Below, piece by piece: positions 1-32,991 of a stretch of DNA of 64,000 nt. The stretch covers positions 132,473-196,472 of the forward strand of contig CASFTG010000003.1 in the NCBI GenBank assembly GCA_949297805.1, read 5' to 3'. Numbering within the stretch: position 1 is the stretch's first letter; every line of letters begins with the position of its first letter. A program made the translations under genes and the position numbers. Below the pieces are notes generated by a model. It searched no databases. It saw only the letters and a list, made by a program, of their open reading frames with translations, and was not told the DNA's origin. Source of the DNA: an uncultured bacterium. GTDB lineage: Bacteria > Bacillota_I > Bacilli_A > RFN20 > CAG-826.

Positions 1-652
1 TTTCTTTGGCGAGGATCCCGGAGTTGATGGCCGGGGCTTGGGCGACGTAGGAGTTCAAAGCCTCCAAATCCCCATGGCGGACGATTCGGGTTATGGCCTG
101 CTCGATGGAGAGGGAATTGTTGAAGTCGCGTCTATCGGCTTCGCGCCCCGAATCGGCCTCTTCGTTGACCCGGGCCGAATGGACGAGTTCGCTGTCTTCG
201 ATCGGGATGATGTCGGTGACGTTTAGCTTCTCGCCATTGAGAATATGGTTAACTGAAAGTAAGGCGGCGATGGTGCTGTCCAAGGGCATGGGGACGATGT
301 TCCTAATGTTCATTAAGAAGTTATCGACCTCATCGGGCGCGACGTCAAGCTGAAAGGCCAAGTCTCGGAGGACCTGGTCCGAAGGATGGTCGGCGAAGGG
401 AATGGGGCCGGCGATGATCTTGGTCTTGTCGTTTTGAACGTAGGCGTAATAGAAGTAGTCATTGGTCAGGAGGTAGCCGACGTGGTTCGTTTCTTTGAAT
501 AAGCGGTCCTTAACCGTCTCGATCGGGTCGGCGACGAGGTTGACCAAGGAATGGTAGAACGTCCTTTCCCCGTCTTCGTATATTCGGACTGGCGTTCCCA
601 TTAAGTTCGAGAGGACGGTGCAGACATAGTTGATATCGATGGTTCGATTCAT
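1..652 (-). CDS. Partial CDS (N-terminal ~217 aa; C-terminus lies beyond the window start), divergent from the GH3 gene; possibly the sensing domain of an AraC-type regulator
   Basis: My own minus-strand translation from the ATG at 652 (MNRTIDINYVCTVLSNLMGTPVRIYEDG...) runs open to position 1. A stop (TAA, complement of 653-655) lies immediately upstream of that ATG. The ORF track misses it because it runs off the window edge. The regulator role is a guess from its divergent position next to a glycoside-hydrolase operon. Confidence 0.45.
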   Translation of the reverse strand, partial: MNRTIDINYVCTVLSNLMGTPVRIYEDGERTFYHSLVNLVADPIETVKDRLFKETNHVGYLLTNDYFYYAYVQNDKTKIIAGPIPFADHPSDQVLRDLAFQLDVAPDEVDNFLMNIRNIVPMPLDSTIAALLSVNHILNGEKLNVTDIIPIEDSELVHSARVNEEADSGREADRRDFNNSLSIEQAITRIVRHGDLEALNSYVAQAPAINSGILAKE

Positions 653-849
653 ATTATCAATATGGTTAAAACGGCCGAAATAAGCAATAACCGGCTGAGT
701 CAGTTGGTAACAAATTTTGCGATTTGGGAACAAATATGCAAGAAATGGCTTCTCGACTCAGGGTATCTTTTGCTTAGCTCATTTGGGGCAGTGACTTAAT
801 TATCCAGAGAATTATTTGCTCTGAATCCCAATTGTAAGGGCTTACATCG

Positions 850-3291
850 ATGAAAAAAGACTTAACGGAACTGTTGTCGGAACTGACGCTCGAGGAGAAG
901 ATCGCCTTGGTCTCGGGAACCGATTTTATGTATACCAATCCGATCCCCCGGCTCGGCATCCCCTCGCTTCGGATGAGCGATGGCCCCCATGGGCTCCGGG
1001 TCCAAAATGAAGGGGGCGACAATGGGGTGGCCGGGAGCGATCCCGCGACCGCCTTCCCGACCGCGGCGACGGTGGCTAATAGCTGGAATCTTGATAACGC
1101 CAAGAAGATTGGTCGGGCCTTAGGGAAAGAAGCCCATAAGTACGGGGTCAATATCGTCTTAGGACCGGGGGCTAACATCAAGCGGAGCCCAATCGCCGGG
1201 CGGAACTTCGAGTATTACAGCGAGGATCCCTTATTATCTGGGAAGATGGCCGCCTCCGAGATTCAAGGGCTCGAAAGCGAAGGGGTTGGGGCTTGCTTAA
1301 AGCATTTCGCCTTGAATAACGCCGAGACGTTTCGGAATAACGGCGATTCGGTTTGCGATGAACGGGCGATGCGGGAGATTTACCTTAAGTCGTTTGAGAT
1401 CGCCGTCAAAGAAGGCAAGCCGGCGGCCTTGATGTCAGCCTATAACAAAGTCAACGGCGTCTATTGCAGCGAGAACTCCTTCCTTTTAACCGAAGTCTTG
1501 CGTAAGGAATGGGGGTTCGAAGGACTGGTCATGACCGATTGGGGCGCGATGCATGAAAGGAATAAATCGCTTGCGGCAGGGCTTGATCTTGAGATGCCCG
1601 GCGACTGTGCCATCTGTCGTAAATGGATTTACGATGGAATTAAGGATGGTTCTTTAAAAGAAGAAGTTCTCGATCAAGCGGTCGGTAATGTCTTGAACCT
1701 TATTAATAAGTACAGCGAAAAGATAGCCGATGACAGTTCGTTTGTTGACGATGATAAAATCGCCGAGGAGATCGCGATCGATTCGGCGGTCCTATTAAAA
1801 AACGATGGGGTGTTACCCTTAGACATTAAAGCTGAATGCCTCGTGGTCGGCGATTTATTCAAACGGATGCGTTATCAAGGGGCTGGGTCCTCAATGATCA
1901 ACTCCGCCTTCCTCCATGCCCCAGAGGAAGCCTTTAAGGAATTAGGTATTAAGTATGAGTTTGTCCAGGGGTATAAAGAGAACGAAACCCAAAGCGATGC
2001 TTCGCTTATTGAAGAGGCCAAATCAAAGGCGAAAACGGCTAAAACGGTCATCGTCTTCGCTGGCTTAACCGAATACGTGGAGATGGAATCTAGCGACCGG
2101 AAAGACATGAAACTGCCGACAAATCAACTGGAGTTGATTGAAGCAATCGCTTCCGTCAATGAAAACATCATCGTCGTTTTGTTTAATGGTTCGGTGGTCG
2201 AGTTGCCGTTTCTTCCTAAGATCAAGGGATTGCTTGATATGTATTTGCCTGGACAAGCCGGGGGAAAAGCGGTGGCTAAATTGCTCTTCGGCTTGGCTAA
2301 TCCCTCCGGCCATCTGGCTGAGACCTGGCTTAATGAATACTCCCTTTTCCCTGGTAGCAGCACCTTCGGCCAAGGCCCGACTGAGGCTTATAAGGAATCG
2401 ATTTACGTCGGGTATCGTTATTGGGAGGCCCATTCAGACGGGGTTGCCTTCCCCTTTGGCTATGGGCTTAGCTATACCAAGTTCCATTGGAGCGATTTCC
2501 AAGTCAAACTGGATAGCGACGATGTCCTCGTGAGATTAAAAATACAAAATACCGGGAATTGTAACGGGGCGGAAGTCGTGCAGATCTACTCCAAAGGACC
2601 GGAAACGGAAATCGATAAACCGATTAGGGAATTGCGGGCTTTTACCAAGATTTACATGGAAAAAGGCGAAGAAAAAACCGTCGAATTGCGTTTTCCCATC
2701 AACTCGATGCAAATCTATGATGTCGTTCATAAGCGGTTTGCCCTTGAAGGAGGATCCTATTTTATCGAAGCCGGCCACGATTGCCTTGATATCGAGTTCC
2801 AAAAGGAAATCGAAATCGAGGGGGAAACCGTTCCCTGCCCCTTAAGCGCCGACTTAGCTCATAAGTATCGAGAAGGGGATATCCGCTCGATTAGCGATGA
2901 GGAGTATTACCAGTATGTTGGTTATCACCCCTCGAAGGTCAACAAGCTTCCGATTACCTTGGATTCTAAACTCGAGGATCTCGAAGCGACCTTTATGGGG
3001 AGGATTTTGAAAAAGGCGGTCCTAGGGGTCGCTTCCAAACAGCTAAGAAAAGCAAAGAAATTGGCAGAAGGACCGGAACGGGATAATAAGATCAAAGGAG
3101 CATTGTTCCTTCATTCTGTCCTCGTCAATAATACTTTAATTTCCATGAGTATGTGCGCTGGCAAATCTATGCCATATAACTTCGCTGAAGGCTTCGTTGA
3201 ATTAAGCAACGGGCATCTATTCAAAGGTATCAAGCGGTTCGCCACCAAAATACAGGCTCCAAAACTTCCAAAGGAGGAGAAACATGAGTGA
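850..3291 (+). CDS. Glycoside hydrolase family 3 β-glucosidase/β-xylosidase (BglX-like), canonical domain order
   Basis: 813 aa. The N-terminal catalytic domain has the KHF and GLVMTDWGA (Asp nucleophile) motifs. It is followed by a GH3 C-domain ([11 protein letters not shown]) and an Fn3-like tail. Confidence 0.9.
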
Positions 3292-5467
3292 GTCAAAGGC
3301 TTTGTCAAACCGAGCTTGGAATTCCCGGGTTCGGTCAAAAAACGTCACTGGGTCCGAGAAATGGTTCGGCTATTTACTCGGTCCTTGTGGGGCGTTGCTA
3401 TTCAATGCCGTCTTAGGTACTTACCTTAACGTCTACTACACCGACGTCTTGGGTTTAGGGTTCCTTTGGGGCGGATTGTTCTTGGTCATCTTCCCGGTCA
3501 TCTCGAAGATCATTGACGCGATCACCAACGTGGTGATGGGCTGGATCATCGACCGGACCAGGACTAAGCAAGGGAAAGCCCGACCCTGGCTACTATTAAG
3601 CGCGCCTTTCTTAGCCATCACCGGGGTTCTCCTCTTCGTAGTCCCGAGTGGGAATGTGACCTTACAAGCCGTCTGGGTCATGCTCTCCTATAACCTCTTC
3701 TATTCTTTCTCTTACACCATCTACAACATGAGCCACAACCTCATGGTTCCCCTTTCGACCCGGAACGCCGGTCAGCGGGGTGTGCTTGCGGTCTTCAACA
3801 ACGTATCCTCGATCATGATGAGCGGCATCGTGGTCGCCCTGATCTTCCCGATGGCCATCATGCCGTCTTTAGGGGCGTCGAAGACTTTGTGGATGATCGT
3901 TATGTCAGTCTTGGCTTGCATTACTTTGCCAGCCACCATCCTCGAATATTACTTCACCAAAGAACGAGTTACCGCCGAACTGGGCACCCAAAAGGAGAAG
4001 AAAGTCTCCTTCAAGCTGCAGCTGAAAGCCGTCTTCACTGACAAGTACATGCTGATATTACTCGGCTATTTCCTCCTTTATACCATCGCCTCCAACTTGA
4101 AGAACATGTCGTTGCCGTATTATTGCAACTACATCCTCGGCACTTATTCCGATGGCATCACCCAAACCCTCGTCTCCGTCATCGGCGGGGTCCCGATGGG
4201 AATTGGCATCTTTGCCGTTTGGCCTTTAGCCAAGAAATTCGGGAAGAAGAACGTTACCTGCGTCGGTTTCCTCCTTTATGGCATCGGTTCCCTAATCTGC
4301 TGGATGATGCCGACTAATCTCTACGTCGTCTTGGTTGGACAATTCATCAAGAACATCGGAGGTCTTCCTTGCTCCTATGTCTTCATGGCCCTCTTCTCCG
4401 ATACTTTAGATCATATGGAATGGAAGAACGGGTTCCGTTGCGACGGGCTTGCGATGTCGGTCTATTCGGTCATCTTGACCGCCGCCCAAGGCATCACCAC
4501 CGGCATCTTCAATGGCGGCATCGCCGCGACTGGCTATCAAGCCCCAGTCGTCACCACCGAGGCCGAACTTCAGTCGGCGTTGAATGAGATCGCCGCCAAT
4601 GGGTGGACGACCCAACTTGCGGCCGCTGACCTTAAAGCCGCGGCCGATGGCTCGATCACCATTGCCTTACAGCAAAACGCCAGCGTCAACAATATGATCA
4701 CATTCTTCTTCGTTGGCTTAGAGGTATTCGCTGGTCTGCTCTTCGCCTTCATGCTGATGTTCGTCCGGGTCGAGAAGACGCTCGATTCGAAACAGAAGAC
4801 CATCCGCGAAAGAATGCGTCTCGCTTGTGTTGCCGCCGGCGAAGTCTGGGTCGAGCCGGAAGTCGCGGTCGAGTTAGAGCAGAAGAAACTCGATGAAGAA
4901 GCCGAAGTCGCCTTCCGCGAGGAACTCAAAGCCAAATGCGAGAAGAAGCACTTGGATTACGAGGCTGAGTTAAAGAAACATATCGAGGCTTTAGAGGCGA
5001 AATCGGCCAAAGCTAAAGCCAAAGACGAGGCCATCGAGGCCAAAGCCGCGGCCAAGGCCAAGATCGCGGCCGATAAGCAGACGGCGAAGTTCGCTAAGAT
5101 GAGCGAAGAGAAGAAAGAGAAACTCAAGCTCAAATACGAACGGAAGCAGAAGCATGACGCCTACCTCTGGGCTATCGAACGAGCGAAAGGCGAAGTCCAT
5201 TACGCCAAGAGCTATGGCGAGATGCTTATCATTGATGAAGCCATGGAGCAGATTGAGGACAATAACCTCTCCATCAAAGAACTGAAAAAGGAAAGCCGGG
5301 CTGATATCAAAATCGGGCCGGAAAACGAAGCTAAGGTCAATGCGCTTCGGTTAGCCAACGCCAACTTGAAGGCGGTCGCTTCCCAAAAGGTCGCCGAGTT
5401 CCAAGAAGCCCATAAGCATGACGACTGGACGGTCTTAGCTCAGCAATATCTGTCTGAAGCCGCTTAA
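3284..5467 (+). CDS. MFS/GPH-family (MelB-like) glycoside:cation symporter with a ~230-aa charged coiled-coil C-terminal extension
   Basis: About 12 hydrophobic TM segments in the first ~490 aa. The [13 protein letters not shown] motif is typical of the GPH family. The Lys/Glu/Ala-rich heptad-like tail ([26 protein letters not shown]...) starts near residue 495. The ATG overlaps the upstream stop (ATGA), and an AAGGAGG RBS precedes it. Confidence 0.85.
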
Positions 5468-5537
5468 ATCACGAATCTATTCCCGAGGGGCTATCAGCCC
5501 TTTGGGAGTATTCGTTCTTAACTAAAAGGAGAGTCTC

Positions 5538-7967
5538 ATGCACTACGATAAGTGGATTGCCCCAACCGATCCTAAACCGAGCGAAATGGAAAACGCCCAT
5601 GCTGAGCTGGCCTATCAAGCTGGCTTAGAGGGAATGGTTCTGTTAGCTAATGACGGGACTTTGCCGTTGAAGAATAAACGGATTGCCCTCTATGGCGTTG
5701 GGGCCCGGCACGCCACCAAAGGCGGGACGGGCTCGGGCGAAGTCCATAACCGTTATAACATCAGCGTCGAAGAGGGATTGAAAAAGGCCGGCTGCGAAAT
5801 ACTTAGTTCGGGATGGCTCAATCGGTTGGATCAGGTGCAGGCCCAAGCGGAGCACGACCGGGTTCTGGCCTTGAAGAAGCGGCTCCATGAATGTGGTTTA
5901 TTCGACTGGCAAGGAATGGTCAACGCCGCGGTCGAGGTACCGCCGGTTTTTCCTTCCTCCCTCCCAATAAACGAAAAACTCGATACCGACACCGCCATCT
6001 ACGTCTTAACCCGTCAAGCGGGGGAAGGGAATGATCGGAAGGCCGGGAAAGGGGACTATTACCTCACCGATTTGGAGGATGAGAACATCGCTTTCCTGGC
6101 CAAGAACTATCCTCATTTCGTCTTGGTCATCAATTCCGGCGCCCCAATCGACCTCTCGATCCTTGATGAGGTAACCATCGGCAACGTCGTTTTCATGGGT
6201 CAAGCGGGGCAAGAGGGGGGTCGGATATTGGCGGACTTGCTATTAGGGAATGCCAATTTCTCGGGGCATCTCACCCTATCCTGGCCGAAGAAACTGGCGG
6301 ACCTCCCCAACGGGACTACTTACTCCTATTTAAAGGGAACCACCGATTATGAGGACTATGTCGAGGGGGTTTATGTCGGTTATCGGTTCTTCGATACTTT
6401 TGGGGTCGAGCCTCGTTACTATTTTGGGGAAGGCCTCTCCTATACCGAGTTCTCTTTGACGGCCGTTTTGGTTAAGGAAGGCAGCGATTTCTTCCTCGAT
6501 TATGAAGTTCATAACGTCGGGAAATATGGCGGTAAGGCAGTGGTGCAAGTTTACGCCTCACCTTTTACCTCCGTTACTTCCGAAGCAAAGAAACTCATCG
6601 GTTTTACGAAAACTAAGACCATCGTTCCAGGGGACTCGGTCAAGGGTCGGATAGCCCTCGATCCGCGCGATTTGGCCTATTATGAGGAGGCAAAATCCTC
6701 CTATGTGATCGCTTCGGGCCATTATGTTATCGCCGCCGGTTTCTCTTCCGTTTGCCCAAAACCGGTTGGCGTGATCGATGCCAAGGAAGCAATCGTATCG
6801 GAACGCTGCTTCCAACTTGGCTCGGCGAAGGACGAAGTGGAGGAAATCATTCCGCCGGAAAGAAGATACGTCTGTTATGAAAATATCCCAGTAATTTGCC
6901 TGGAGAAGAATGATATCCCTCCCATCGAACATGATTATTCGCCTTCAAGCTATCTCTCTATTCCGGTTTCCGATGAGGTTCTATGCGATCTAGTGGTTGG
7001 ATATCTGAATCCGGTCTCAAGCGAGAAACCGGTCGCGATCCCCGGATTCGGCGGGCGGACCTCGGCGAAATACTATACTGAGCTCGGCATTGATTGTTTG
7101 GCGACCGCCGATGGACCGGCTGGCTTACGGCTCAATCCGAAGTTCGCCGGAAGCGACGGGAAGAAAGCCCATGGGTCGATGATTCCCGAGGATATGCGGC
7201 TCGGCCGTCCTTTCTATAATTTCGTCGATAAGCTTCTCTCGATATCCTTCGCGAAAAAGCATTATCAATATGCGACGGCCTTTCCGGTCGGCCTAGTGCA
7301 AGCCGCGACTTGGAATGTCAATCTAGTCGAGAAAATCGGGCAGGCGGTTGGGGAGGAAATGGCCGCTTACGACATCGATATCTGGCTAGCTCCCGGCATG
7401 AACATCGTCCGTAACCCCCTATGCGGAAGAACCTTTGAATACTATTCCGAGGACCCATTGTTGACCGGTTGCTTAGCTGGTTATTTATCCAAAGGGGTGA
7501 ATTCGGTTCCTGGCCGCGGTTTGACCTTAAAGCACTTTTGCTGCAACTCCCAGGAGGATGACCGTTTCCACTGTGATTCCCGTGTCCATGAACGGGCCTT
7601 GCGGGAGATATATCTCAAAGCCTTCAAGATCGCGATCGCCATCGGCAATCCAACCTGCGTCATGAGTTCCTACAACCGGGTCAACGGGGAGTATGCGGGT
7701 TCAAATTCTGATCTATGTGAACGAGTTTTGCGGTCAGAATTCGGATTTAAAGGGTTTGTGATGTCGGATTGGGACGCGCAAGCCTCTGACCGGGCCAGCT
7801 GCGAAGGGCAACTTAAAGGCGGGACCGATCTATTGATGCCGGGGTCCCGCTGGACGAGGGAAGAGACCGCCAAAGCGTTAAAAGAGGGAAGACTCTGCCG
7901 AGCCGATTTAGAGAAAGCCGTTAATCGGATAATCAATGTCGCCAATAGATTGAAGGAGGGCCAATAA
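5538..7967 (+). CDS. Glycoside hydrolase family 3 enzyme with circularly permuted domain order (C-domain first, catalytic domain last)
   Basis: The N-terminus has the GH3 C-domain signature (VLLANDGTLPLKNKRIALYG). The catalytic-domain motifs sit near the C-terminus ([32 protein letters not shown]). Confidence 0.85.
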   Translation: MHYDKWIAPTDPKPSEMENAHAELAYQAGLEGMVLLANDGTLPLKNKRIALYGVGARHATKGGTGSGEVHNRYNISVEEGLKKAGCEILSSGWLNRLDQVQAQAEHDRVLALKKRLHECGLFDWQGMVNAAVEVPPVFPSSLPINEKLDTDTAIYVLTRQAGEGNDRKAGKGDYYLTDLEDENIAFLAKNYPHFVLVINSGAPIDLSILDEVTIGNVVFMGQAGQEGGRILADLLLGNANFSGHLTLSWPKKLADLPNGTTYSYLKGTTDYEDYVEGVYVGYRFFDTFGVEPRYYFGEGLSYTEFSLTAVLVKEGSDFFLDYEVHNVGKYGGKAVVQVYASPFTSVTSEAKKLIGFTKTKTIVPGDSVKGRIALDPRDLAYYEEAKSSYVIASGHYVIAAGFSSVCPKPVGVIDAKEAIVSERCFQLGSAKDEVEEIIPPERRYVCYENIPVICLEKNDIPPIEHDYSPSSYLSIPVSDEVLCDLVVGYLNPVSSEKPVAIPGFGGRTSAKYYTELGIDCLATADGPAGLRLNPKFAGSDGKKAHGSMIPEDMRLGRPFYNFVDKLLSISFAKKHYQYATAFPVGLVQAATWNVNLVEKIGQAVGEEMAAYDIDIWLAPGMNIVRNPLCGRTFEYYSEDPLLTGCLAGYLSKGVNSVPGRGLTLKHFCCNSQEDDRFHCDSRVHERALREIYLKAFKIAIAIGNPTCVMSSYNRVNGEYAGSNSDLCERVLRSEFGFKGFVMSDWDAQASDRASCEGQLKGGTDLLMPGSRWTREETAKALKEGRLCRADLEKAVNRIINVANRLKEGQ

Positions 7968-10510
7968 TGAAAGCCATTAACCTACATGTCGATTACCTTG
8001 TAAACCACTTGGGTTTAGGGAACCCCCATCCGACTTTGTCCTGGAACGATGAAGGTGGGATTAAGCAGACCGCCTACCGGCTGCTTGCTAAAACTAATGG
8101 ACAGGAAATCTATGATTCGGGCAAGGTTAATAGTTCGTCAATGAAAGTCGAACTGCCCGTCGAATTGAAGTCAAGGCAGGCCGTCGAATGGACGGTCATG
8201 GTCTATGACGAGAATGACCAATCCGAAGGTTGGAGCGAACCCGCCCATTTCGAGATGGGGCTGCTTTCCCCATCCGATTTCCATGCCTTTTGGATCAGCG
8301 GCAACTACTCGGTCAACAAGAAGGAACGTTACCCGGTCGATTGCTTTAAGAAGACCTTCCAAGTTGCCGGAGTTTCCCAAGCTCGGCTTTACATCACCGC
8401 CTGTGGCCTTTACGAAGCCAGAATCAATGGCCAAAGGGTTGGGGAATTTATTTTAGCTCCTGGCCATACCGATTATCGGAAACGGATTCAGTTACAAACC
8501 TATGACGTCACTTCTTTATTGAATGAAGGCGAGAACGTCATTGAGGTGATGTTGGCCGATGGCTGGTATCGGGGTTCCTGTGGGGCTTGGGGCTTACGGA
8601 ATCAATATGGCAAAGTAACCAAGCTTTTCGCCCAACTGGAGATTGAGGGGAAGATGGGCAAGAGAATGGTCCTTTCCGATGCTTCTTGGTCTTGGAGCAA
8701 CGATGGCCCGATCCGTTTTGCCGACAATAAGGACGGGGAAATCGTCGATTCGAATAAGAAGCCCTCTTATGCAGGTTTTGCCAAAGTTGCGAAGTGTTCG
8801 GTTATCCCGACTCCTTCCGATAACGTTTATATCCAAGAAGGCGAGCATTTCAGCCCTGTCGAGGTTACGGTCTCTCCTTCAGGCAAAACCATTTATAAGC
8901 TTCCCCAGAATATCGCCGGTTACGTTACTTTCAAAGCGAAGGCCCAAGGCGGGGAGATCATCAGACTCCAATGTGGGGAGATGCTCGATGAGCAGGGCGA
9001 ATTGACCTTGAAGAACATCCAATGCCGAAATAAGAAGAAGACCACCCCTTTGCAGCAGGTCGAATACGTCTGCCATCCCGGGGAGAATGTCTATAAGACC
9101 ACCTTCGCCATCTTTGGTTTCCAATATATCGCGGTGGAGGGACACGTCGATTCGATTGAAGGAATCGCTGTCTATTCGGCTTTGGAGGAGACCTTGACCT
9201 TTGATTCCTCCAATCCTTTGCTTAATAAGTTCGTTGAAGCCACCCGCTGGTCAGCCAAAAACAATTCGGCGGACGTCCCGACCGATTGTCCAACTAGGGA
9301 ACGGCATGGCTGGACTGGGGATTCCGAACTCTTCTTCTTAACCGCCGCCTATTTGTTCAACTATGCCCCTTTCGCTAAGAAGCATCTTCGTGACGTCTAT
9401 GATTGGCAGAAGAAAGACGGCAAATTGCCTCAGATCGCGCCCGCCGGCGGGGTTGACTTTTACATGGAAGTCATGAACGGGGCTCCGGGCTGGGCCGATG
9501 CCGGGATCATGATTCCTTATCGGTATTCCAAAATCTATCAGGATGAGGCGATTCTGCGGGAATTTTATCCAGGAATGAAGAAATACGCCGAATTCATCAT
9601 CCATCGGATGGGAAAACATACCCTTTTGTCGAAACCTTTGCATTTGAAGCACGCTTTGCGGAAATACGCGATAAATTACGGCCAAGCCTATGGGGAATGG
9701 GCCGAGCCCGCCGACGTCCATCCGATGGTCTGGACCGACTTTGTTTTCCCCAAGCCGGAAGTCTCCACCGCCTATGCCTCTTGGATGATGAAATGGATGA
9801 AGGAGATCGCGACAAAGCTTGGGAAAGAAGAGGATGCCAAACGCTTTGCCTTCTACCAAGAGAAGACCAAAGAAGCCTACCAGGCTATCCGGAAAACTGA
9901 AGAATACAAGCTCGATACCGACCGGCAGGCGATGCTGGTTCGGCCGCTTTATCTTGACTTGCTCGATAAGGAACAAACCGAGTATGCCAAGAAACGGCTG
10001 CTCGAGGCTTTAGACCATTATGATTGGCGTCTCGGCACTGGTTTCTTGTCCACACCGCTAATTTTGTTTGTCCTAGAGACAATCGACCCTGAGTATGCTT
10101 ATAAGTTGTTGGAGAATGAAAAGATGCCCGGCTGGCTCTTCATGCCCAAATCGGGAGCCACCACCATCTGGGAATCTTGGGAAGGGACCTGTGCTCAAGG
10201 GGGCGTTGCTTCCTTGGACCATTACTCCAAAGGCGCTTGCCTCGAATGGGTGTTCTCCCGGATGATGGGCATAAACCCTGACGGGGATAACCACTTCACT
10301 CTTTGCCCCCTTCCGGGCGGGCACTTCACCTATGCCGAATGCGAATACCGTTCGGTTTATGGGAAGGTTAAGGTCAGTTGGCGTCGGGCCGCCAACGGCT
10401 GGGATGTCGAGGTCGTCGTCCCATCCAATTGTCAGGCGACATTCGTCTATCCTGATAAGCGGATGGAGGAACTCGCCGCCGGGACCCATAAGCTAACTAT
10501 TGAAAACTAA
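7967..10510 (+). CDS. α-L-rhamnosidase (GH78)
   Basis: 847 aa. N-terminus is LHVDYLVNHLGLGNPHPTLSW. DVPTDCPTRERHGWTGD is the GH78 signature. The start overlaps the upstream stop (TAATG). Confidence 0.9.
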   Translation: MKAINLHVDYLVNHLGLGNPHPTLSWNDEGGIKQTAYRLLAKTNGQEIYDSGKVNSSSMKVELPVELKSRQAVEWTVMVYDENDQSEGWSEPAHFEMGLLSPSDFHAFWISGNYSVNKKERYPVDCFKKTFQVAGVSQARLYITACGLYEARINGQRVGEFILAPGHTDYRKRIQLQTYDVTSLLNEGENVIEVMLADGWYRGSCGAWGLRNQYGKVTKLFAQLEIEGKMGKRMVLSDASWSWSNDGPIRFADNKDGEIVDSNKKPSYAGFAKVAKCSVIPTPSDNVYIQEGEHFSPVEVTVSPSGKTIYKLPQNIAGYVTFKAKAQGGEIIRLQCGEMLDEQGELTLKNIQCRNKKKTTPLQQVEYVCHPGENVYKTTFAIFGFQYIAVEGHVDSIEGIAVYSALEETLTFDSSNPLLNKFVEATRWSAKNNSADVPTDCPTRERHGWTGDSELFFLTAAYLFNYAPFAKKHLRDVYDWQKKDGKLPQIAPAGGVDFYMEVMNGAPGWADAGIMIPYRYSKIYQDEAILREFYPGMKKYAEFIIHRMGKHTLLSKPLHLKHALRKYAINYGQAYGEWAEPADVHPMVWTDFVFPKPEVSTAYASWMMKWMKEIATKLGKEEDAKRFAFYQEKTKEAYQAIRKTEEYKLDTDRQAMLVRPLYLDLLDKEQTEYAKKRLLEALDHYDWRLGTGFLSTPLILFVLETIDPEYAYKLLENEKMPGWLFMPKSGATTIWESWEGTCAQGGVASLDHYSKGACLEWVFSRMMGINPDGDNHFTLCPLPGGHFTYAECEYRSVYGKVKVSWRRAANGWDVEVVVPSNCQATFVYPDKRMEELAAGTHKLTIEN

Positions 10511-10581
10511 CCTAGAAAACTGAAAAAACATTAAATACATGCACGATGGAGCTAACGGATAAAGGATAGAATTAACCAGCG

Positions 10582-11886
10582 ATGAAAAATAGGTTTCTAG
10601 CAATCGACATCGGCGCCTCTTCTGGTAGGGCGATTCTTTCGTCGGAGGCGGACGGTTTGCTCACTTGCGAGGAGGTTTATCGTTTCCCTAATGGCCCGCT
10701 TATGCAAGATGGCCATTTGGTTTGGGATATCCAACGGCTACTAAACGAAATCGAAAACGGGATAAGGGCCGCCTTTAAGGTTTGCCCGGATATCCGAAGC
10801 CTTTCTATTGATACTTGGGGCTGCGATTACGTCTTGCTTAAAGGCGATAAGGTCGTTTATCCCGCCTATTGCTACCGTGATTCTCGGACTGAAAAGGTCA
10901 TCGAGGAAGTCCACAAGCTCGCCCCTTTTTCCGAACTTTATGGCCTAACTGGCATCCAATTCCAACCATTTAATACCTTATATCAACTTTATGAGGATAA
11001 GGTGAACGGGAGGTTAGAGGGCGTCACCGACTTCTTGATGCTGCCGGAGTACTTTTCCTATCGGTTAACGGGGGTTAAGAAGAAGGAATACACCAACGCC
11101 ACCACGACCGGTTTAGTTGGGACGGATGGCGAGTTTGCCTCTTTGATTATCGATCGGCTCGGTCTTCCATCGCATCTTTTTCCCAAACTCAGCCAACCCG
11201 GAACGATCGTCGGGACGGTTCTCCCTGAGGTTGCGGCTGAACTCGGCGGGGATTGTCTTGTTAAACTTTGCGCTTCCCATGATACCGCTTCGGCGGTTGA
11301 GGGGGTGGTGCTCCCTAGCGACGCTCTTTATCTTTCTTCCGGCACTTGGTCGTTGCTCGGAGCCAAAGTCGAAACCCCGATCACGACCGAAGTGGCTCGT
11401 GCCTGTAACTTCTCCAATGAAGGCGGGCCCGGGTATATCCGGTTTCAAAAGAACATCATGGGAATGTGGGTCATTAACCGACTCAAGGATGAACTTTGCC
11501 CAGCGGAAGACTTCGCTTACGTCATCAAATTGGCTAAGCAAAGCCGTTCCAAGAAGACGGTTGCGATCAATGGGCCAGCCTATTTAGCCCCCGTCTCGAT
11601 GAGGCAAACTATCGAAGCGGAAATTGGGGAAGGGGAACTGCCTCCGAGCGAGTTATTCCGCATCGCCTTCAATTCCTTGGCGAAGTCTTATGCCGACACC
11701 ATCAAGCAAATTGAAGACATCACCCATAAATCATTCGATTCCCTCGTCATCTTCGGCGGCGGGGCCAAAAACGGCTTCCTCAACGAGTTGACTGAGCGGA
11801 TATCCGGCAAGCGGGTCATTGCTTTGCCGGTTGAGGCCACGAGCCTTGGCAATCTAAAAATCCAAATGAAAGGAGATAAAGCATGA
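10582..11886 (+). CDS. rhaB: Rhamnulokinase (FGGY carbohydrate kinase)
   Basis: N-terminus AIDIGASSGRAIL. FGGY-type C-terminus FGGGAKNGFLNEL. Lies immediately upstream of rhaA and rhaD. Confidence 0.85.
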   Translation: MKNRFLAIDIGASSGRAILSSEADGLLTCEEVYRFPNGPLMQDGHLVWDIQRLLNEIENGIRAAFKVCPDIRSLSIDTWGCDYVLLKGDKVVYPAYCYRDSRTEKVIEEVHKLAPFSELYGLTGIQFQPFNTLYQLYEDKVNGRLEGVTDFLMLPEYFSYRLTGVKKKEYTNATTTGLVGTDGEFASLIIDRLGLPSHLFPKLSQPGTIVGTVLPEVAAELGGDCLVKLCASHDTASAVEGVVLPSDALYLSSGTWSLLGAKVETPITTEVARACNFSNEGGPGYIRFQKNIMGMWVINRLKDELCPAEDFAYVIKLAKQSRSKKTVAINGPAYLAPVSMRQTIEAEIGEGELPPSELFRIAFNSLAKSYADTIKQIEDITHKSFDSLVIFGGGAKNGFLNELTERISGKRVIALPVEATSLGNLKIQMKGDKA

Positions 11887-13127
11887 CTGACAAGTATTTA
11901 TTGGCGAAGGAGGAATACGCCAAAGCTGGCGTCGACATCGACGCCGCCATCGCCCGGATCAAGGAGATCCCCATCTCGATCCATTGCTGGCAAGGGGATG
12001 ATGTCATCGGCTTCGATGGGTCCGATTCTTTAGAAGGCGGGATCCAGACGACCGGCAATTACCCGGGACGGGCTCGGAATTTCGCAGAGCTGAAAGCCGA
12101 CCTCCATGAGGCTTTCTCCCTCATCCCGGGGAAGAAACGGCTCAACCTCCATGCCTCCTATGCCATCCTTAACGGCGAAAAGGTGGAACGGGACGCCTAT
12201 CGTCCTGAACACTTCGCCCCTTGGGTTGAATTTGCCAAAGAGGAAGGACTCGATGGGATTGATTTCAACCCGACTCTCTTCTCGAGCCCCCATATGAAAG
12301 ACGGGGTGTCTTTATCTTCTCCGGATGAAGAAACGAGGAAATTCTGGGTCCGCCACTGCCAAGCCTGTATCCGGATTTCGGAATATTTCGCTAAGGAAAT
12401 GGGAAGCCACTGCCTAATGAACATCTGGATTCCCGATGGGTATAAGGATGTGCCCGCCGATCGATTAGGGCCGCGCCTCCGCTTGAAAAAGAGCCTCGAT
12501 GAAATCCTTTCAATCGGCTATGACCGTAGCCTTGTCAAAGTCGCGGTCGAGAGCAAGGTATTCGGCATTGGGCTCGAATCCTATACTGTTGGCAATTCCG
12601 AATTCTATATGAATTATGCGGCGAAGAATAACCTTTGCTGCCTATTGGATAATGGCCATTACCACCCCTTAGAATACGTGAGCGATAAGATTCCTTCCTT
12701 GATCGCTTTCTATGATAACGTTGCTCTCCATGTCACGCGGGGAGTCCGTTGGGACTCCGATCACGTGGTCACCTTTGAGGATGAACTGAAAGAGATCGCT
12801 AAGGAAATCATCCGGAATGAGGCCGATAAGAAAGTCATGATTGGCTTGGATTATTTCGATGCCTCGATCAACCGGATCGCCGCGTGGGTCACCGGGGCGC
12901 GGAATATGGAGAAGGCGTTGCTTTATGCGGCCTTAATAAACAATAAGAAGTTGAAGGAACTGCAGGATCAAGGCGACTTCACCACCCTCTTCGTCGAGAC
13001 CGAGGCTCTGAAGGATCGGCCATATGGATTGGTCTGGGAAGAATACTTAAAAGAGCAGGGGCTCGAACTTGATTATCTAACCCCGATTAGAGAATACGAA
13101 AAACAAGTCTTAAGCAAGAGGAAATAA
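11883..13127 (+). CDS. rhaA: L-rhamnose isomerase
   Basis: 414 aa with IHCWQGDDVIGFDG and the conserved metal-binding region. The ATG overlaps the rhaB stop (ATGA). Confidence 0.9.
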   Translation: MTDKYLLAKEEYAKAGVDIDAAIARIKEIPISIHCWQGDDVIGFDGSDSLEGGIQTTGNYPGRARNFAELKADLHEAFSLIPGKKRLNLHASYAILNGEKVERDAYRPEHFAPWVEFAKEEGLDGIDFNPTLFSSPHMKDGVSLSSPDEETRKFWVRHCQACIRISEYFAKEMGSHCLMNIWIPDGYKDVPADRLGPRLRLKKSLDEILSIGYDRSLVKVAVESKVFGIGLESYTVGNSEFYMNYAAKNNLCCLLDNGHYHPLEYVSDKIPSLIAFYDNVALHVTRGVRWDSDHVVTFEDELKEIAKEIIRNEADKKVMIGLDYFDASINRIAAWVTGARNMEKALLYAALINNKKLKELQDQGDFTTLFVETEALKDRPYGLVWEEYLKEQGLELDYLTPIREYEKQVLSKRK

Positions 13128-13129
13128 GT

Positions 13130-13960
13130 ATGAAAGACATTTTGGAAAGCCGGTTCTTAAAAGAATTCTGTCTAACCGCCGACAACATGTATCGGCTCGG
13201 CTGGGATGAACGGAACGGGGGCAACATCTCGTTGCTGCTTAAAGACGAGGAGGTCAAGGAATACCTTGATGTCAACTCGGTTAAGCGGGTCATCCCCTTA
13301 ATGGGAGTTCATACGGTCGATTTCGATATCTCGCCCCTTATTGGAAAGTGCTTCCTCGTCACCGGGACCGGCAAGTACTTTAAAAACGTCTTACGGGAAC
13401 CGGAAGTCAACCTCGGCGTCGTCCGGATTCGCGAGGACGGCAAGTCGCTTGATCTGCTTTGGGGATTTGAAGATGGGGGACGGCCGACGAGCGAATTCCC
13501 AGCCCATATGATGAGCCATATCGCCCGGCTTTCAGTCGATCCGGATAATCGGGTGGTGATGCATTGCCATCCGACCTATACCCTAGCCATGAACTTCGTC
13601 CATCCCCTTGATGAGAAGCTCTTCACCAAAGACCTCTGGCGGATGTGCACCGAATGCGTCGTCGTCTTCCCCGATGGAATCGGGGTCTTGCCTTGGATGC
13701 TCTGCGGGACGACTGAAATTGGGAAAGCAACCGCCGAGAAGATGAAGGAATACCGGCTGGTCGTCTGGGCGATGCACGGGATCTATGGGGCGGGTAAGGA
13801 CTTAGACGAAACCTTCGGCCTCATCGAGACGGTCGAAAAAGCGGCCCAGATATACATGCTGACCTTCGATAAGCCCCAGTGCAACACCATCAGCGATGAC
13901 AACATGAAGCAACTGGTTGACTTGTTCGCAGTCAAAGTAAAAGAGGGCTATCTTGATTAA
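13130..13960 (+). CDS. rhaD: Rhamnulose-1-phosphate aldolase (class II aldolase)
   Basis: 276 aa. It has a class II aldolase/adducin fold signature (HCHPTY, MHGIYGAG) and follows rhaA. Confidence 0.9.
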   Translation: MKDILESRFLKEFCLTADNMYRLGWDERNGGNISLLLKDEEVKEYLDVNSVKRVIPLMGVHTVDFDISPLIGKCFLVTGTGKYFKNVLREPEVNLGVVRIREDGKSLDLLWGFEDGGRPTSEFPAHMMSHIARLSVDPDNRVVMHCHPTYTLAMNFVHPLDEKLFTKDLWRMCTECVVVFPDGIGVLPWMLCGTTEIGKATAEKMKEYRLVVWAMHGIYGAGKDLDETFGLIETVEKAAQIYMLTFDKPQCNTISDDNMKQLVDLFAVKVKEGYLD

Positions 13961-13967
13961 CGTTCTT

Positions 13968-14000
13968 CCCCGTTTAGCTCGCTAGACGGGGATTTCTTTT
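13968..14000 (+). terminator. Rho-independent terminator after rhaD
   Basis: Hairpin CCCCGTTTAGCTCGCTAGACGGGG followed by ATTTCTTTT. Confidence 0.6.
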
Positions 14001-14052
14001 GCCTTATTTCAGTCTTCGGCGGTTTAATTAATCGAATAGGAAGGAAGAAACC

Positions 14053-14817
14053 ATGAAAAGAGTTACCTTAGTGACTGGTGCTGCCTCCGGCCTTGGCAAA
14101 GAATTCGCGAAGCTTTACGCTCGTGATGGGCACGCCTTAGTCTTGGTCGACAAAGACGAGGAAGGATTGAAGAAAGTCGGGACGGAACTGGGTGGGGATA
14201 TCGATATCCTGCCGGCTGATCTGACCAAGCGGGAAGAGCTGGAAAAAGTGTTCGACCATTGCCGATCGAGTGGCTATTTCGTTAATTATCTACTTAACGT
14301 CGCCGGGTTCGGGGATCGTTGCGACTTTAAGGATATGGCCATCGCCAAACAACTCGACATGACTGAAGTCAACTGCAACGCCGTCTTCTATTTCACCCGC
14401 GTTTTCTTAACCGACATGCTGAAAAACGATGAAGGGCATATCATCAACGTCTCTTCGATCGCCGGCTTCTACCCCGGGCCTTATATGTGCACCTACCATG
14501 CGACCAAGGGGTTCGTCTTGCTACTTGGCGAATCAATTGCCTATGAGTTAAAGAAAACCAACGTCAAATTGTTGACCCTTTGCCCGGGTCCGTTCAATTC
14601 GGCGTTTGTTAGCAAAGCCCATAACGATTACACCTTCTCGAAGATCAAGCCGGTGTCGGCCGAATATGTCGCTAAGTTTGGCTATAAGAAATCGAAGAAA
14701 GGGAAAACTCTGGCCGTCATTGGTTTTAAGAATAAGTTAACCGTCTTTGCCTCGCGCTTCGTCTCGCGGAAATTCATCGCCAAGACCAGCGCGAAAACGA
14801 TGAAGAAAGACGCTTAG
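14053..14817 (+). CDS. SDR-family short-chain oxidoreductase
   Basis: TGAASGLGKEF Rossmann motif, YxxxK active-site pattern (YHATK). A GGAAGGAAG RBS precedes it. Confidence 0.8.
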   Translation: MKRVTLVTGAASGLGKEFAKLYARDGHALVLVDKDEEGLKKVGTELGGDIDILPADLTKREELEKVFDHCRSSGYFVNYLLNVAGFGDRCDFKDMAIAKQLDMTEVNCNAVFYFTRVFLTDMLKNDEGHIINVSSIAGFYPGPYMCTYHATKGFVLLLGESIAYELKKTNVKLLTLCPGPFNSAFVSKAHNDYTFSKIKPVSAEYVAKFGYKKSKKGKTLAVIGFKNKLTVFASRFVSRKFIAKTSAKTMKKDA

Positions 14818-15590
14818 AAGCTGGCTTCGACCGCGGCTTTGGCGGCTTGTTCAATGATATCGAGGTTGGCTTTGACTTTATCGGGCAAAGCCGTGGTTTT
14901 GATTTCGCTGATCGGGAAATAGCCATAGAGGGTATAAGCCCAGGTCAAGCTGACTAAAAACCGCCCAACGTCAAAGGACATATGGAAGCCATCGCGGGTG
15001 ATGGTATCGCCAAGCCGGCTCTTCCGGAGGTTTTGGACCGCGATGCCGGAGGGGATGACGCCGGCGAATTCCTTATTAACCAATACCTTCTCCTTCACCG
15101 TCTTGATGATGGCTTCGAGCATTTCCTTTTGGCTATGGTGATAGAGAGGGAAGTCCCAGTGAGTCGAGTCGGCTTGATAAGCCCAGGTCATTTGCCAAAG
15201 CAACTTAAAGTCGGGGTTGGGGCAACGTTCCCGAAGATACTTGATGATAGAAGGCAGGTCGCCATAGGTCGAGGGGACGCCCGAATGCCCGCTGTATTGC
15301 TGAAGGGTCAAGACATCCCATTTCCTTTCTGTTAAGGCCTTCTCCAAGGTGTAGTCCGGATGGTCATCGAGCCCATCGTAACGATAGACCCGATAGGAGT
15401 AGTCGGGGATGTTGTTTTGGATGTTCTTATAATGCCGTTCCAAGGAGCAGCCCCCGATATATAGGTTCCCGATATGGAGTTCCTTAACCCCGTGATCCTT
15501 TAGAATCGGGAATAAATAGTCGACCGCATCGTCAGAAAAGGAATTGCCGATGCAAAGCAAAGAAAGCGAATCTTTATTTGTCAAAATCAT
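14814..15590 (-). CDS. DUF4886/SGNH-hydrolase-like protein
   Basis: CIGNSFSDD block near the N-terminus (GDS(L)-like). I chose the start MILTNKD because a GGAGGT RBS sits 7 nt upstream. A longer in-frame start at 15659 (MCSLFFGLLIF..., signal-peptide-like) remains possible. Confidence 0.6.
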   Translation of the reverse strand: MILTNKDSLSLLCIGNSFSDDAVDYLFPILKDHGVKELHIGNLYIGGCSLERHYKNIQNNIPDYSYRVYRYDGLDDHPDYTLEKALTERKWDVLTLQQYSGHSGVPSTYGDLPSIIKYLRERCPNPDFKLLWQMTWAYQADSTHWDFPLYHHSQKEMLEAIIKTVKEKVLVNKEFAGVIPSGIAVQNLRKSRLGDTITRDGFHMSFDVGRFLVSLTWAYTLYGYFPISEIKTTALPDKVKANLDIIEQAAKAAVEASF

Positions 15591-15708
15591 CGTTTTGACC
15601 TCCGCGGTTAATAGTAGGGGAGAGCGAAAGATAAGTAAACCGAAAAAAAGACTACACAAAGTCTATTTTGTCTATTACACTACGTTTGTATCAAAAGGAA
15701 AGACATTC

Positions 15709-21299: not shown

Positions 21300-22898
21300 T
21301 TAGTCGAATAAATCGGGGAAGGTGGTTTCGAAGTAGTCGTAGATGGTCTGATCGTGGTAGGAGAGAGCCATTTCTTCGACATAGTGCTGCTGGGCCGCCT
21401 TCTGGTAGGACTCAGTATCGGAGACTAACCCGGCGACGGAGTAGATGATGTCGTAAATGTTCTTACCCGCCATTTTGTCGTAGGAGGCATCGCCGCCTTG
21501 GACCAGTTTCGGGGCCTTGACCGCTTCGTCGACCCGGACGATGTACCAAGTCGAGGAATCCTTGTCGTAGATGCAATAAGGATATTGTTCATCGGTCTCG
21601 AATTGTTCGGGGACCATGTAGTAGGATCCGCCGACGTACCAACCGAAGTTGCCTTTGGCGTTGTCTTCCGCCGCCCCTTCCCGGTCGACTTCGTTGGCGA
21701 CGGTGATCTTGAACAAGCGGTTCGAGATCGAGGAGGCCAGATCGCTTAAGCCGGTCGAAGTGTACCAGCCTTCGGTGACGTGGCTGGTGGCGACGGTTTC
21801 CCGTTTCTTGATTTCCAAGCCGGTTTCCTTGGTATAGGCCCCAGCGTTGGTGAAGTCAGTCGAGGAACCGGTGACGTTCCGGTCGTCGGAGAGACCCTTG
21901 TACTCGACGGCGATGTCGCCATAGGTCGTCTCTTCGTAGGTGGCTTCGGTATTATCGTCCGCCGAGGCTTCGACCAGGGTGAACCCGGCGTCGGTGTAGA
22001 TTTGCTGAGCGAACTTGAAGTCTTCGTTATTCTCCGCATCGACGAAGTAGCCTTTGTAAAGCTGATCGAGGAAGTGGAGGTCGCGGTACTTCGCGTCGAC
22101 TTCGGGGTTATTGAGGACCAGCTTGGCGTAGGAACGGACTAACCGTTGGGTGCCGAATTGGACGCCATCGATGTCGGGAAGAGCGATGTATTGGACTTTC
22201 CGGGCATAGGAACGGCCGAGGACGCCATAGTTGTTGTCGAGGAGGTATTGCTCGACTAAGGCTTTCCGATAGATCGTCGGGAGGATGCTCCGCTCAATGT
22301 AGTCCTCATAGGTGACGTACATATTGGTGAAGTACTCTTCGACGTCTTCATAGCTCTTGGCCCCATCGAGGGCGGTTTCTTTGAAGGTATCGAGGCTGCC
22401 GAGCTTATAAAGCTCCGCGACCTGAGCCCGGTAGAACTCCTTCTCCAAGAAGAGGGAACGGCGTTGATAGGTGGTGTTCTCAACGACGGCCCACATCTGG
22501 GTCTCGATCTGATCGACGACGTGGTTGATGAAGGCTAAGGCATTGGCCTGGCCTTTCTCCCCTTCGCCATAGACCGGATGGTTGGCGACGAAGGAGGCGA
22601 GTTTTGAGTTGTCGGTATAGACCTCATACATTCCCCCTTCGCCGAAGAACTCTCCGAAGAGTCCTTTGGAATAGAGGGCGAGGATGTTGTTGAGAACTTT
22701 CTCCGAATTGGAGTCGCCGGCGGTGACCAAAGCATCGTAGATTTGGCCCATGTTGTTGTTAACAACGTCCGAAATGTTGAGGATCGGGGCATTGGCGACA
22801 TCGTCGGGGAGCCCGGCTTCGACGTCGGAGCAGGACGCGAGGCCGAGGGTGGCGGCCGCTAAGGCGGTCAAAGCAAAGGCTTTAAATTTATTTTCCAT
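21300..22898 (-). CDS. Large lipoprotein of unknown function
   Basis: Signal peptide plus lipobox (MENKFKAFALTALAAATLGLASC). The mature protein is rich in D/T/Y/E. A GGAGGAG RBS precedes it. Confidence 0.7.
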   Translation of the reverse strand: MENKFKAFALTALAAATLGLASCSDVEAGLPDDVANAPILNISDVVNNNMGQIYDALVTAGDSNSEKVLNNILALYSKGLFGEFFGEGGMYEVYTDNSKLASFVANHPVYGEGEKGQANALAFINHVVDQIETQMWAVVENTTYQRRSLFLEKEFYRAQVAELYKLGSLDTFKETALDGAKSYEDVEEYFTNMYVTYEDYIERSILPTIYRKALVEQYLLDNNYGVLGRSYARKVQYIALPDIDGVQFGTQRLVRSYAKLVLNNPEVDAKYRDLHFLDQLYKGYFVDAENNEDFKFAQQIYTDAGFTLVEASADDNTEATYEETTYGDIAVEYKGLSDDRNVTGSSTDFTNAGAYTKETGLEIKKRETVATSHVTEGWYTSTGLSDLASSISNRLFKITVANEVDREGAAEDNAKGNFGWYVGGSYYMVPEQFETDEQYPYCIYDKDSSTWYIVRVDEAVKAPKLVQGGDASYDKMAGKNIYDIIYSVAGLVSDTESYQKAAQQHYVEEMALSYHDQTIYDYFETTFPDLFD

Positions 22899-32297: not shown

Positions 32298-32991
32298 AGC
32301 CAATCTCAAAGCCGTTCTCCAATCCGAGGGAATCGACCTCCCGGAGTCTTTTTTCGTTAAGCTTCCGGTGTATGCTCGTTTATTAGCCGAATGGAATGAG
32401 AAGATGAATTTGACCGCCATCACCGAGAGCGGGGCGGTCTATGAAAAGCACTTCCTCGATTGCTTGTTGCTGCTTAAAAACCGGGACCTTAATAACAAAG
32501 CCCTTTGTGACTTGGGTTCGGGGGCGGGCTTCCCGGGGATGCTTTTAGCTTTGGCGGTCCCTTCGGCTAAAGTCACCCTGGTCGATGCGACGAAAAAGAA
32601 GTTCATTTTTCTTGAGGAAGTTAAGAAAACCCTGCAAATCCCCAACGTCGAATTCCATATTGGCCGGGCGGAAGATATGAAAGAGTTCCGGGAGTATTTC
32701 GATATTTTGACTTGCCGCGGATTCGCCGCCTTGAATATTTTCCTTGAGGTCGCGGCTCCGCTTACCAAACGGGGCGGGACGATCCTCGCCATGAAAGGGG
32801 CAAAGGCGGAAGAGGAACTAGACCAAGCGCAGAAAGCTATCCGGAAGCTGAACCTCAAATTCAATGGGGCCGACCGCTTTGTCCTCCCGGAATGCCAAGA
32901 AACCCGGATTGAGCTTTCGTTTAAGAAAACTGGCCCGACCGACAAGAAATACCCGCGGCCTTGGAAAGACATCCTGGAGCGACCCCTATGA
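32290..32991 (+). CDS. rsmG: 16S rRNA (guanine527-N7)-methyltransferase RsmG (GidB)
   Basis: SAM motif DLGSGAGFPG. Lies between mnmG and parA. Confidence 0.9.
   Translation: MDEANLKAVLQSEGIDLPESFFVKLPVYARLLAEWNEKMNLTAITESGAVYEKHFLDCLLLLKNRDLNNKALCDLGSGAGFPGMLLALAVPSAKVTLVDATKKKFIFLEEVKKTLQIPNVEFHIGRAEDMKEFREYFDILTCRGFAALNIFLEVAAPLTKRGGTILAMKGAKAEEELDQAQKAIRKLNLKFNGADRFVLPECQETRIELSFKKTGPTDKKYPRPWKDILERPL

Follow-up and report, generated by a model that had tools for sequence, protein, structure and literature searches.

A gene cluster at the left edge of a 64,000-nt stretch of DNA from an uncultured bacterium of the GTDB lineage CAG-826 (contig CASFTG010000003.1, positions 132,473 to 196,472 of the forward strand; the whole stretch is called the window here) is probably an AraC-activated catabolic unit for small α-L-rhamnosyl-β-glycosides, which would be imported and then cleaved inside the cell. 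A sequence-only reading of the window had proposed that a glycoside-type symporter and intracellular cleavage feed the phosphorylated rhamnose pathway. This proposal holds up: the symporter gene adjoins that of an α-L-rhamnosidase (GH78) in 34 of 40 related loci, the hydrolases lack signal peptides, and catalytic residues are intact.

Gene content and authenticity of the locus

An open reading frame (ORF) map and profile searches bear out the gene list of the sequence-only reading, coordinates included. A divergent AraC-family regulator is followed by a GH3 gene (GH3a), a GPH-family symporter gene of the MFS_2 type, a circularly permuted GH3 gene (GH3p), GH78, rhaB, rhaA, rhaD and a gene for a short-chain dehydrogenase/reductase (SDR). 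From GH3a to the SDR gene, all lie on the plus strand with gaps of no more than 92 nt; the successive spacings are -8, +70, -1, +71, -4, +2 and +92 nt. The features are as follows.

1..652, minus strand: AraC-family regulator, N-terminal 217 of 396 codons, divergent and cut by the window edge; a full-length copy is on the identical contig L043
702..737, plus strand: candidate AraC operator, AGTTGGTAACAAAT and ATTTGGGAACAAAT as direct repeats spaced at 20 bp, some 115 nt 5' of the GH3a start codon
850..3291, plus strand: GH3a, exo-β-glycosidase, cytoplasmic, 813 aa; Pfam Glyco_hydro_3, Glyco_hydro_3_C and Fn3-like in normal order, with about 150 aa added at the C-terminus
3284..5467, plus strand: GPH-family (MFS_2) glycoside:cation symporter, 727 aa; PF13347, 300.9 bits
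4796..5464, plus strand: C-terminal tail of the symporter, cytoplasmic, about 220 aa (aa ~505-727, after the twelfth transmembrane helix), all-helical, K/E/A-rich and conserved
5471..5515, plus strand: highly stable hairpin with a weak U-tail in the gap that separates the symporter gene from GH3p; ΔG -28.1 kcal/mol, z -6.5, 0/200 shuffles fold as well
5538..7967, plus strand: GH3p, circularly permuted GH3 β-glycosidase, cytoplasmic, 809 aa; Pfam order Glyco_hydro_3_C (33-282), Fn3-like (335-404), Glyco_hydro_3 (578-801)
7967..10510, plus strand: GH78 α-L-rhamnosidase, cytoplasmic, 847 aa; five rhamnosidase Pfam domains
10582..11886, plus strand: rhaB, rhamnulokinase (FGGY family), 434 aa; FGGY_N and FGGY_C, with TIGR02627 as best match
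11883..13127, plus strand: rhaA, L-rhamnose isomerase; PF06134, 581.8 bits, and NF002203, 598.8 bits, above the cutoff of 572
13130..13960, plus strand: rhaD, rhamnulose-1-phosphate aldolase; TIGR02624, 404.6 bits, above the cutoff of 400.95
13967..14002, plus strand: predicted intrinsic terminator, an 11-bp G+C-rich stem (13967-13992) followed by AUUUCUUUUG; ΔG -18 kcal/mol, z -4.1, 0/200 shuffles fold as well
14053..14817, plus strand: classical SDR, 254 aa, PF00106, 3' of the terminator; right-hand boundary, judged to lie outside the locus

Because an independent metagenome contig (L043) carries identical DNA over 13,291 nt with 0 mismatches, the locus is not an assembly artefact. Exact look-ups with RhaA and GH3a led to the identical contig, and that of the GH78 protein gave no match. 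Exact locus proteins recur in several assemblies (NCBI, ENA and Logan metagenome-assembled genomes).

The hydrolases are predicted to act inside the cell

All five GH78 domains (PF25788, PF08531, PF05592, PF17389 at 259 bits, and PF17390) score above their cutoffs, and the closest structures in the Protein Data Bank (PDB) are SaRha78A (3w5m), AtRha (6gsz) and DtRha (6i60). The positions aligned to E636 and E895 of SaRha78A, which we take to be general acid and general base in the numbering of Fujimoto et al. 2013, are both Glu (in TRERHGWTGD and TTIWESW).

Both GH3 proteins have the TIM-barrel and α/β-sandwich domains of the family, a membership that for GH3a was judged from domains and strong PDB matches only. 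The nearest solved structure to GH3a is C. thermocellum BglB (7ms2, E 7e-179). Its top NCBIfam model, exo-α-(1→6)-L-arabinopyranosidase (NF041610), gave 641.6 bits, far below the 1300-bit cutoff, and GH3p gave 356.5 bits against the same model, so neither protein qualifies as that equivalog. The best model reached only half its trusted score and so does not fix the sugar specificity of GH3a.

That the second GH3 is permuted, as had been read from the sequence, is confirmed by the order of its Pfam domains and by a swapped alignment to T. neapolitana Bgl3B (TnBgl3B, 2x40), in which query residues 20-411 correspond to chain residues 323-709 and query residues 576-801 to chain residues 75-303. 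The α/β-sandwich and Fn3 domain thus precede the TIM barrel, as they do in circularly permuted GH3 β-glucosidases (permuted chains 5k6l and 5wug are among the PDB matches). GH3p keeps both the nucleophile Asp of TnBgl3B (GFVMSDW, D242) and its acid/base Glu (GEGNDRK, E458). The permuted GH3s of related loci share only 30-35% identity with it.

Examination of the N-termini of GH3a, GH3p and GH78 revealed no hydrophobic signal segment and no signal peptide in any of the three, which agrees with intracellular cleavage. Secreted GH3 and GH78 enzymes would have told against the earlier proposal.

A symporter-rhamnosidase pair forms the core of a locus family

A GH78 scan of the species-representative genomes of GTDB yielded 40 related loci at 46-60% identity (one further match is a short fragment); the nearest GH78 is only 60% identical. 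Most of these loci come from metagenome-assembled genomes of Clostridia and Bacilli from gut, rumen and caecum. A GH3 gene is present in 24 loci (19 GH3a-like and five permuted like GH3p), a divergent AraC gene in 23, and adjacent rhaBAD genes in nine. By this synteny, the conserved core of the family is the GPH-GH78 pair. The pairing of carrier and rhamnosidase argues that the imported compound still carries rhamnose. What distinguishes the window's version is that both GH3 types occur together with rhaBAD.

Seven of the loci (L001, L005, L006, L013, L015, L017 and L034) are without the AraC regulator/GH3a pair and have a divergent TetR-type regulator upstream of the GPH gene instead. By gene order, then, the same transporter-rhamnosidase pair seems to have two alternative regulatory solutions, AraC and TetR.

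Accessory genes vary. GH43 and GH1 genes are recurrent. A GDSL esterase gene lies between GPH and GH78 in L003 (9198-10004), and ORFs of similar size occupy this position in L036 (9169-9999), L034 (9208-10014) and L004 (5782-6615), these three not scanned individually. BD-FAE/Abhydrolase_3 esterases are found 3' of GH78 or rhaD in several loci, and extended-SDR genes (Epimerase/NAD_binding_10) between GH78 and rhaB. Esterase- or dehydrogenase-like genes lie at L001 12667-13839, L027 7144-8103, L025 12614-14180 and L021 12627-15169. The esterases hint at acylated substrates.

The symporter carries a conserved helical tail

The symporter scores far above the PF13347 cutoff of 27 bits and has a MelB-like fold of 12 transmembrane helices (TM), which places it in the GPH family (TC 2.A.2). 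In a Foldseek search with the AlphaFold2 model, the top matches were MFSD2A and MelB, with TM-scores (target) of 0.73-0.78. The major facilitator superfamily (MFS) core extends to about aa 500, with a small extracytoplasmic insert between TM11 and TM12.

The ORF exceeds the length of a normal GPH protein by some 250 aa, and the 120 best homologues are all 637-767 aa long. In the model, built from a 33-sequence alignment, the tail forms long helices with pLDDT 72-93. W522, P525, W629 and E632 are invariant in alignment A2, and C552, K555, Y559, H566 and G636 are nearly so (≥90%). A Pfam search of the tail gave no family match, and Foldseek matches of the full transporter model were confined to the MFS core. 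A tail-only search of 1.84 billion representative proteins found 48 matches, always with the tail near the C-terminus; most are short proteins that look like fragments of the same transporter clade. None of the 48 shows another recognisable architecture, and the search gave no functional lead. As modelled, the tail appears to be an undescribed helical domain, and by this search it is confined to the one transporter clade.

Carriers with the distal tail motif are found in 12 of 13 related loci having a GH3a orthologue, a count in which shared ancestry is not controlled for. Tailed carriers occur in only three of 18 loci without a GH3a orthologue, again with no control for shared ancestry, and one of these three (L004) lacks the distal motif by regular expression. 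One speculative and rather improbable explanation is that the tail is a functional coupling module, which could dock cytoplasmic glycosidases, for example the GH3a that co-occurs with it, at the carrier's mouth (an uptake-hydrolysis metabolon) or signal to the AraC regulator whether the transporter is occupied. Either role, if true, would be a previously undescribed link between glycoside uptake and intracellular processing in Firmicutes.

LacS of Streptococcus thermophilus has a C-terminal regulatory domain that is IIA-like. In LacS-type GPH transporters and in the present symporter alike, a GPH carrier is followed by an extra cytoplasmic C-terminal domain of 150-220 aa, a likeness of architecture only. 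Unlike that of LacS, the present tail is all-helical and K/E-rich, has no Pfam match and shows no similarity to IIA of the phosphotransferase system.

Rhamnose would enter a contiguous RhaA-RhaB-RhaD set

The rhaB, rhaA and rhaD genes are contiguous and translationally coupled, the rhaB stop codon overlapping the rhaA start, and together belong to the phosphorylated L-rhamnose pathway. A tblastn search with an E. coli RhaM query found no rhaM in the window or the related loci, a result that counts as weak evidence. GH78 enzymes are inverting and hence release β-L-rhamnose, which might be the reason that the pathway can do without rhaM.

The enzymes known to act on lactaldehyde in rha regulons are iron-containing alcohol dehydrogenases (Fe-ADHs) of PF00465 (FucO/RhaO, RhaZ), AldA, or RhaW, an SDR domain in fusion with RhaE (PMC3870299). 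No protein of PF00465 or PF00171 was found among window ORFs of at least 150 aa. The window encodes no known lactaldehyde enzyme, and therefore the gene that decides the fate of lactaldehyde must lie in another part of the genome.

The sequence-only reading had suggested that the SDR at the end of the cluster could be the L-lactaldehyde reductase that the cluster lacks. Such an enzyme, or a dehydrogenase, could be co-transcribed with rhaBAD, as the gene is on the same strand and 92 nt 3' of rhaD; moreover, in other bacteria an SDR-type domain, RhaW, oxidises lactaldehyde as part of a fusion with RhaE (PMC3870299). Several observations make this suggestion highly improbable. A terminator separates rhaD from the SDR gene, and an SDR homologue is adjacent to GH78 or rhaBAD in none of the 40 syntenic loci. 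Homologues at 77% and 69% identity head the same block as in the window (TetR, LPG_synthase_TM, GT4, RecX and an HD protein), where no rha genes occur; upstream of them lie unrelated genes (MgsA-like AAA, Na/Pi cotransporter). The lactaldehyde reductases FucO/RhaO and RhaZ are, furthermore, Fe-ADHs rather than SDRs (PMC3870299).

On the strength of the terminator, the 0/40 adjacency and the conserved rha-free block, we place the SDR outside the locus; it is apparently the first gene of an SDR-TetR-LPG_synthase_TM-GT4-RecX-HD block. We rejected a FucO/RhaO/RhaZ-type reductase because the protein is a classical SDR (PF00106) with no Fe-ADH fold (PF00465). A RhaW-type lactaldehyde dehydrogenase was rejected on context (a standalone gene beyond the terminator, 0/40 loci, the TetR/LPG-synthase block), not by comparison with RhaW sequences. 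Leaving the SDR out of the locus prevents the spread of an erroneous lactaldehyde-reductase annotation. The extended SDRs of related loci would be better candidates for a lactaldehyde-type reductase.

A candidate operator and two hairpins

The full-length regulator on L043 (396 aa) contains HTH_18/HTH_AraC, and in 23 related loci the gene for a full-length homologue of about 400 aa likewise stands divergently upstream. The regulator's domains put it in the same family as RhaR/RhaS, which does not imply orthology to either. The sequence-only reading had found no rhaR/S. This is misleading, as the divergent regulator is of the AraC family and faces a direct-repeat candidate operator. Directly 3' of the regulator on the same strand, just past the left edge of the window, L043 carries an IU_nuc_hydro gene (inosine-uridine-preferring nucleoside hydrolase, 284-1153).

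AGTTGGTAACAAAT and ATTTGGGAACAAAT sit in the 197-nt divergent region between the regulator and GH3a; in short form, the candidate repeats of this region are TTGGNAACAAAT. We surveyed 22 regulator-GH3/GPH intergenic regions (the window and 21 related loci) for 12-mer direct repeats at spacings of 12-30. Repeats at 20 bp were present in 11 of the 22 regions and at 21 bp in two, and any other spacing was seen in no more than three. The 13 regions with 20-21 bp repeats compare to a shuffled mean of 0.16. An ACAA(A/T)T core is common to the repeats, which were found in L003, L007, L009, L010, L018, L022, L024, L026, L029, L038 and L039 as well as at 702-737 of the window. A second copy was sought 5' of GH3p and rhaB, and none was found there. 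Tandem repeats roughly two turns apart have been described for AraC-type rhamnose regulators (PMC3870299), and the 20-bp repeat of the window matches this pattern. These data suggest that the 20-21-bp direct repeat is likely an AraC-family operator conserved across the locus family.

The sequence-only reading had also taken the cluster for a single operon. Same-strand orientation and short gaps agree with this, but the claim is too strong given the strong hairpin after the symporter gene and the terminator ahead of the SDR gene. The hairpin at 5471-5515 was picked up by a terminator scan and has no repeat copy elsewhere in the window; it could be a partial terminator or an mRNA-stabilising or processing element. 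The hairpin after rhaD has the features of a classical intrinsic terminator and would end the locus. Most economically, the locus would have one regulated promoter, its transcript being attenuated or processed behind the symporter gene and terminated behind rhaD.

Proposed mechanism

In the proposed mechanism, the GPH symporter would bring in the glycoside or oligosaccharide whole, along with a cation. GH78, as a cytoplasmic inverting exo-enzyme, would take off the terminal rhamnose, and one of the two GH3 exo-β-glycosidases would then remove the exposed glucose or related β-linked sugar. RhaA, RhaB and RhaD would turn rhamnose into dihydroxyacetone phosphate and L-lactaldehyde, the latter presumably handled by a gene outside the window. 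Transcription would begin at an activator-dependent promoter 3' of the 20-bp-spaced repeat and stop at the terminator after rhaD, with the hairpin after the symporter gene probably setting different levels for the GH3a-GPH and GH3p-GH78-rhaBAD parts. Three parts of this scheme are inferred: in which order cleavage proceeds, what the symporter transports and in which direction, and to which effector the regulator responds.

A number of points weigh against this mechanism. RhaB scores 389 bits against TIGR02627, below the cutoff of 528, and the symporter scores 219.3 bits against TIGR00792 (gph), slightly under the trusted cutoff of 231.35. No lactaldehyde-consuming enzyme was found among the window proteins. 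Transcription could end completely at the hairpin behind the symporter gene, which would call for an internal promoter not seen here. The specificity of the GH3 enzymes (for glucose, xylose or arabinose) and the linkage specificity of GH78 cannot be read from sequence, and gut GH78s vary widely in selectivity and linkage preference (PMC11901676). We came upon no experimental study of a locus of this type.

Possible substrates

The substrates could be plant flavonoid rutinosides or neohesperidosides (rutin, hesperidin, naringin), imported intact and relieved of their aglycone in the cell, and we regard this as a tentative possibility. GH78 and β-glucosidase-like GH3s are the enzyme set that flavonoid diglycosides need, the relatives come from guts of herbivores and of hosts on plant-rich diets, and the esterase genes of related loci would suit acylated plant glycosides. 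GPH members such as glucuronide carriers accept glycosides that bear an aglycone. A rutin-deglycosylating Lactobacillus up-regulates its rhamnosidase cluster (PMC8456714), and rutin, naringin and hesperidin are degraded by related gut Lachnospiraceae that possess numerous GH3 and GH78 enzymes in the cytoplasm (PMC11170127). The sequence, however, gives no clue to an aglycone, and no flavonoid-modifying gene (reductase, chalcone isomerase or phloretin hydrolase) lies nearby in the window. The enzyme set would suit any small β-glucoside capped with α-L-rhamnose: saponins, phenylethanoid glycosides, steviol glycosides, free rhamnose-glucose disaccharides and rhamnose/glucose oligosaccharides of bacterial polysaccharide origin fit as well as flavonoids do.

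It is somewhat unlikely that the substrates are not aglycone-bearing natural products at all but rhamnose/glucose hetero-oligosaccharides from polysaccharides, such as bacterial exopolysaccharides (of the gellan or sphingan type or others), the rhamnose-glucose polysaccharides of Gram-positive walls, or plant gums. Breakdown of gellan oligosaccharides in Bacillus sp. GL1 ends with an intracellular β-glucosidase and a GH78 rhamnosidase. GPH carriers typically transport di- and oligosaccharides; the GH43, GH1 and acetyl/feruloyl-type esterases of related loci are typical of oligosaccharide trimming; and Rodionova et al. (PMC3870299) read rha-linked transporters as importers of rhamnose oligosaccharides. 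Against this, there is no lyase, GH88/GH105, GH2, endo-acting or secreted enzyme in or beside the locus, and therefore the oligosaccharides would have to come from other organisms.

Relation to known systems

The Lactobacillus rhamnosidase clusters, L. plantarum ram1/ram2 and L. acidophilus ramA, were reportedly described by Beekwilder and by Avila, both in 2009. These and the pollen-induced cluster of L. melliventris (PMC8456714) resemble the present locus, by description only, in having Gram-positive intracellular GH78s with rutin-type derhamnosylation. Their rhamnosidase genes lie within sugar-utilisation clusters and are induced by plant material.

The general idea of rha regulons with importers and cytoplasmic hydrolases for rhamnose glycosides was set out in 2013 by Rodionova et al. 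(PMC3870299). The principle of the locus is thus already known, and it is a fairly ordinary gut-Firmicute cluster. In the RhaS-controlled rhiT-rhiN system of Dickeya/Erwinia (PMC3870299), where rhiT is of the GPH family, GPH-type import and cytoplasmic hydrolysis likewise pass rhamnose into RhaA, RhaB and RhaD. Both systems have an AraC-family regulator and tandem direct repeats about two helical turns apart. Unlike rhiT-rhiN, the present locus uses GH78 and two GH3s as hydrolases, not a GH105 acting on unsaturated rhamnogalacturonide; its regulator is no demonstrated orthologue of RhaS/RhaR; its transporter has the conserved helical tail of about 220 aa; and its hydrolases, carrier and rhaBAD are joined in one compact unit, in an uncultured Firmicute.

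Derhamnosylation by gut bacteria governs the availability to the host of dietary flavonoid, saponin and related glycosides, and most of the derhamnosylating enzymes characterised come from Bifidobacterium, Bacteroides and Lactobacillus. The locus type described here (AraC, GH3, tailed GPH, GH78 and sometimes rhaBAD) recurs widely among uncultured Clostridia and Bacilli of gut and rumen, and offers a concrete candidate set of importer and enzymes.

Neighbouring genes

Convergent with the SDR gene and overlapping it by 4 nt, a minus-strand gene at 14814-15659 encodes a DUF4886 protein that contains a GNSFS block of SGNH-like type. Here it separates the SDR gene from the TetR gene; the close relative L044 has no gene there. 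We considered this protein as a counterpart of the esterases of related loci and rejected it, as no homologue occurs in any of the 40.

Nothing further downstream in the window has to do with the breakdown of rhamnose, and most of it is housekeeping (Suf, mnmG-rsmG-parAB, der, recA, rny, miaB, miaA, fhs, argS). At 30420-34593, mnmG (gidA), rsmG (gidB), parA and parB lie in a row, a typical origin-proximal neighbourhood, and the catabolic locus is therefore some 20-30 kb from the likely replication origin region.

Two adjacent minus-strand genes at 21300-22916 and 22888-25026 encode large predicted lipoproteins (538 and 712 aa) with no Pfam match. Each has a lipobox-like motif after the signal sequence (LASC and LAAC), and the pair is kept beside a HIT gene in the related contig L044. 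GC content is raised in this region (21300-25026; 0.556), and its GC skew is 0.17.

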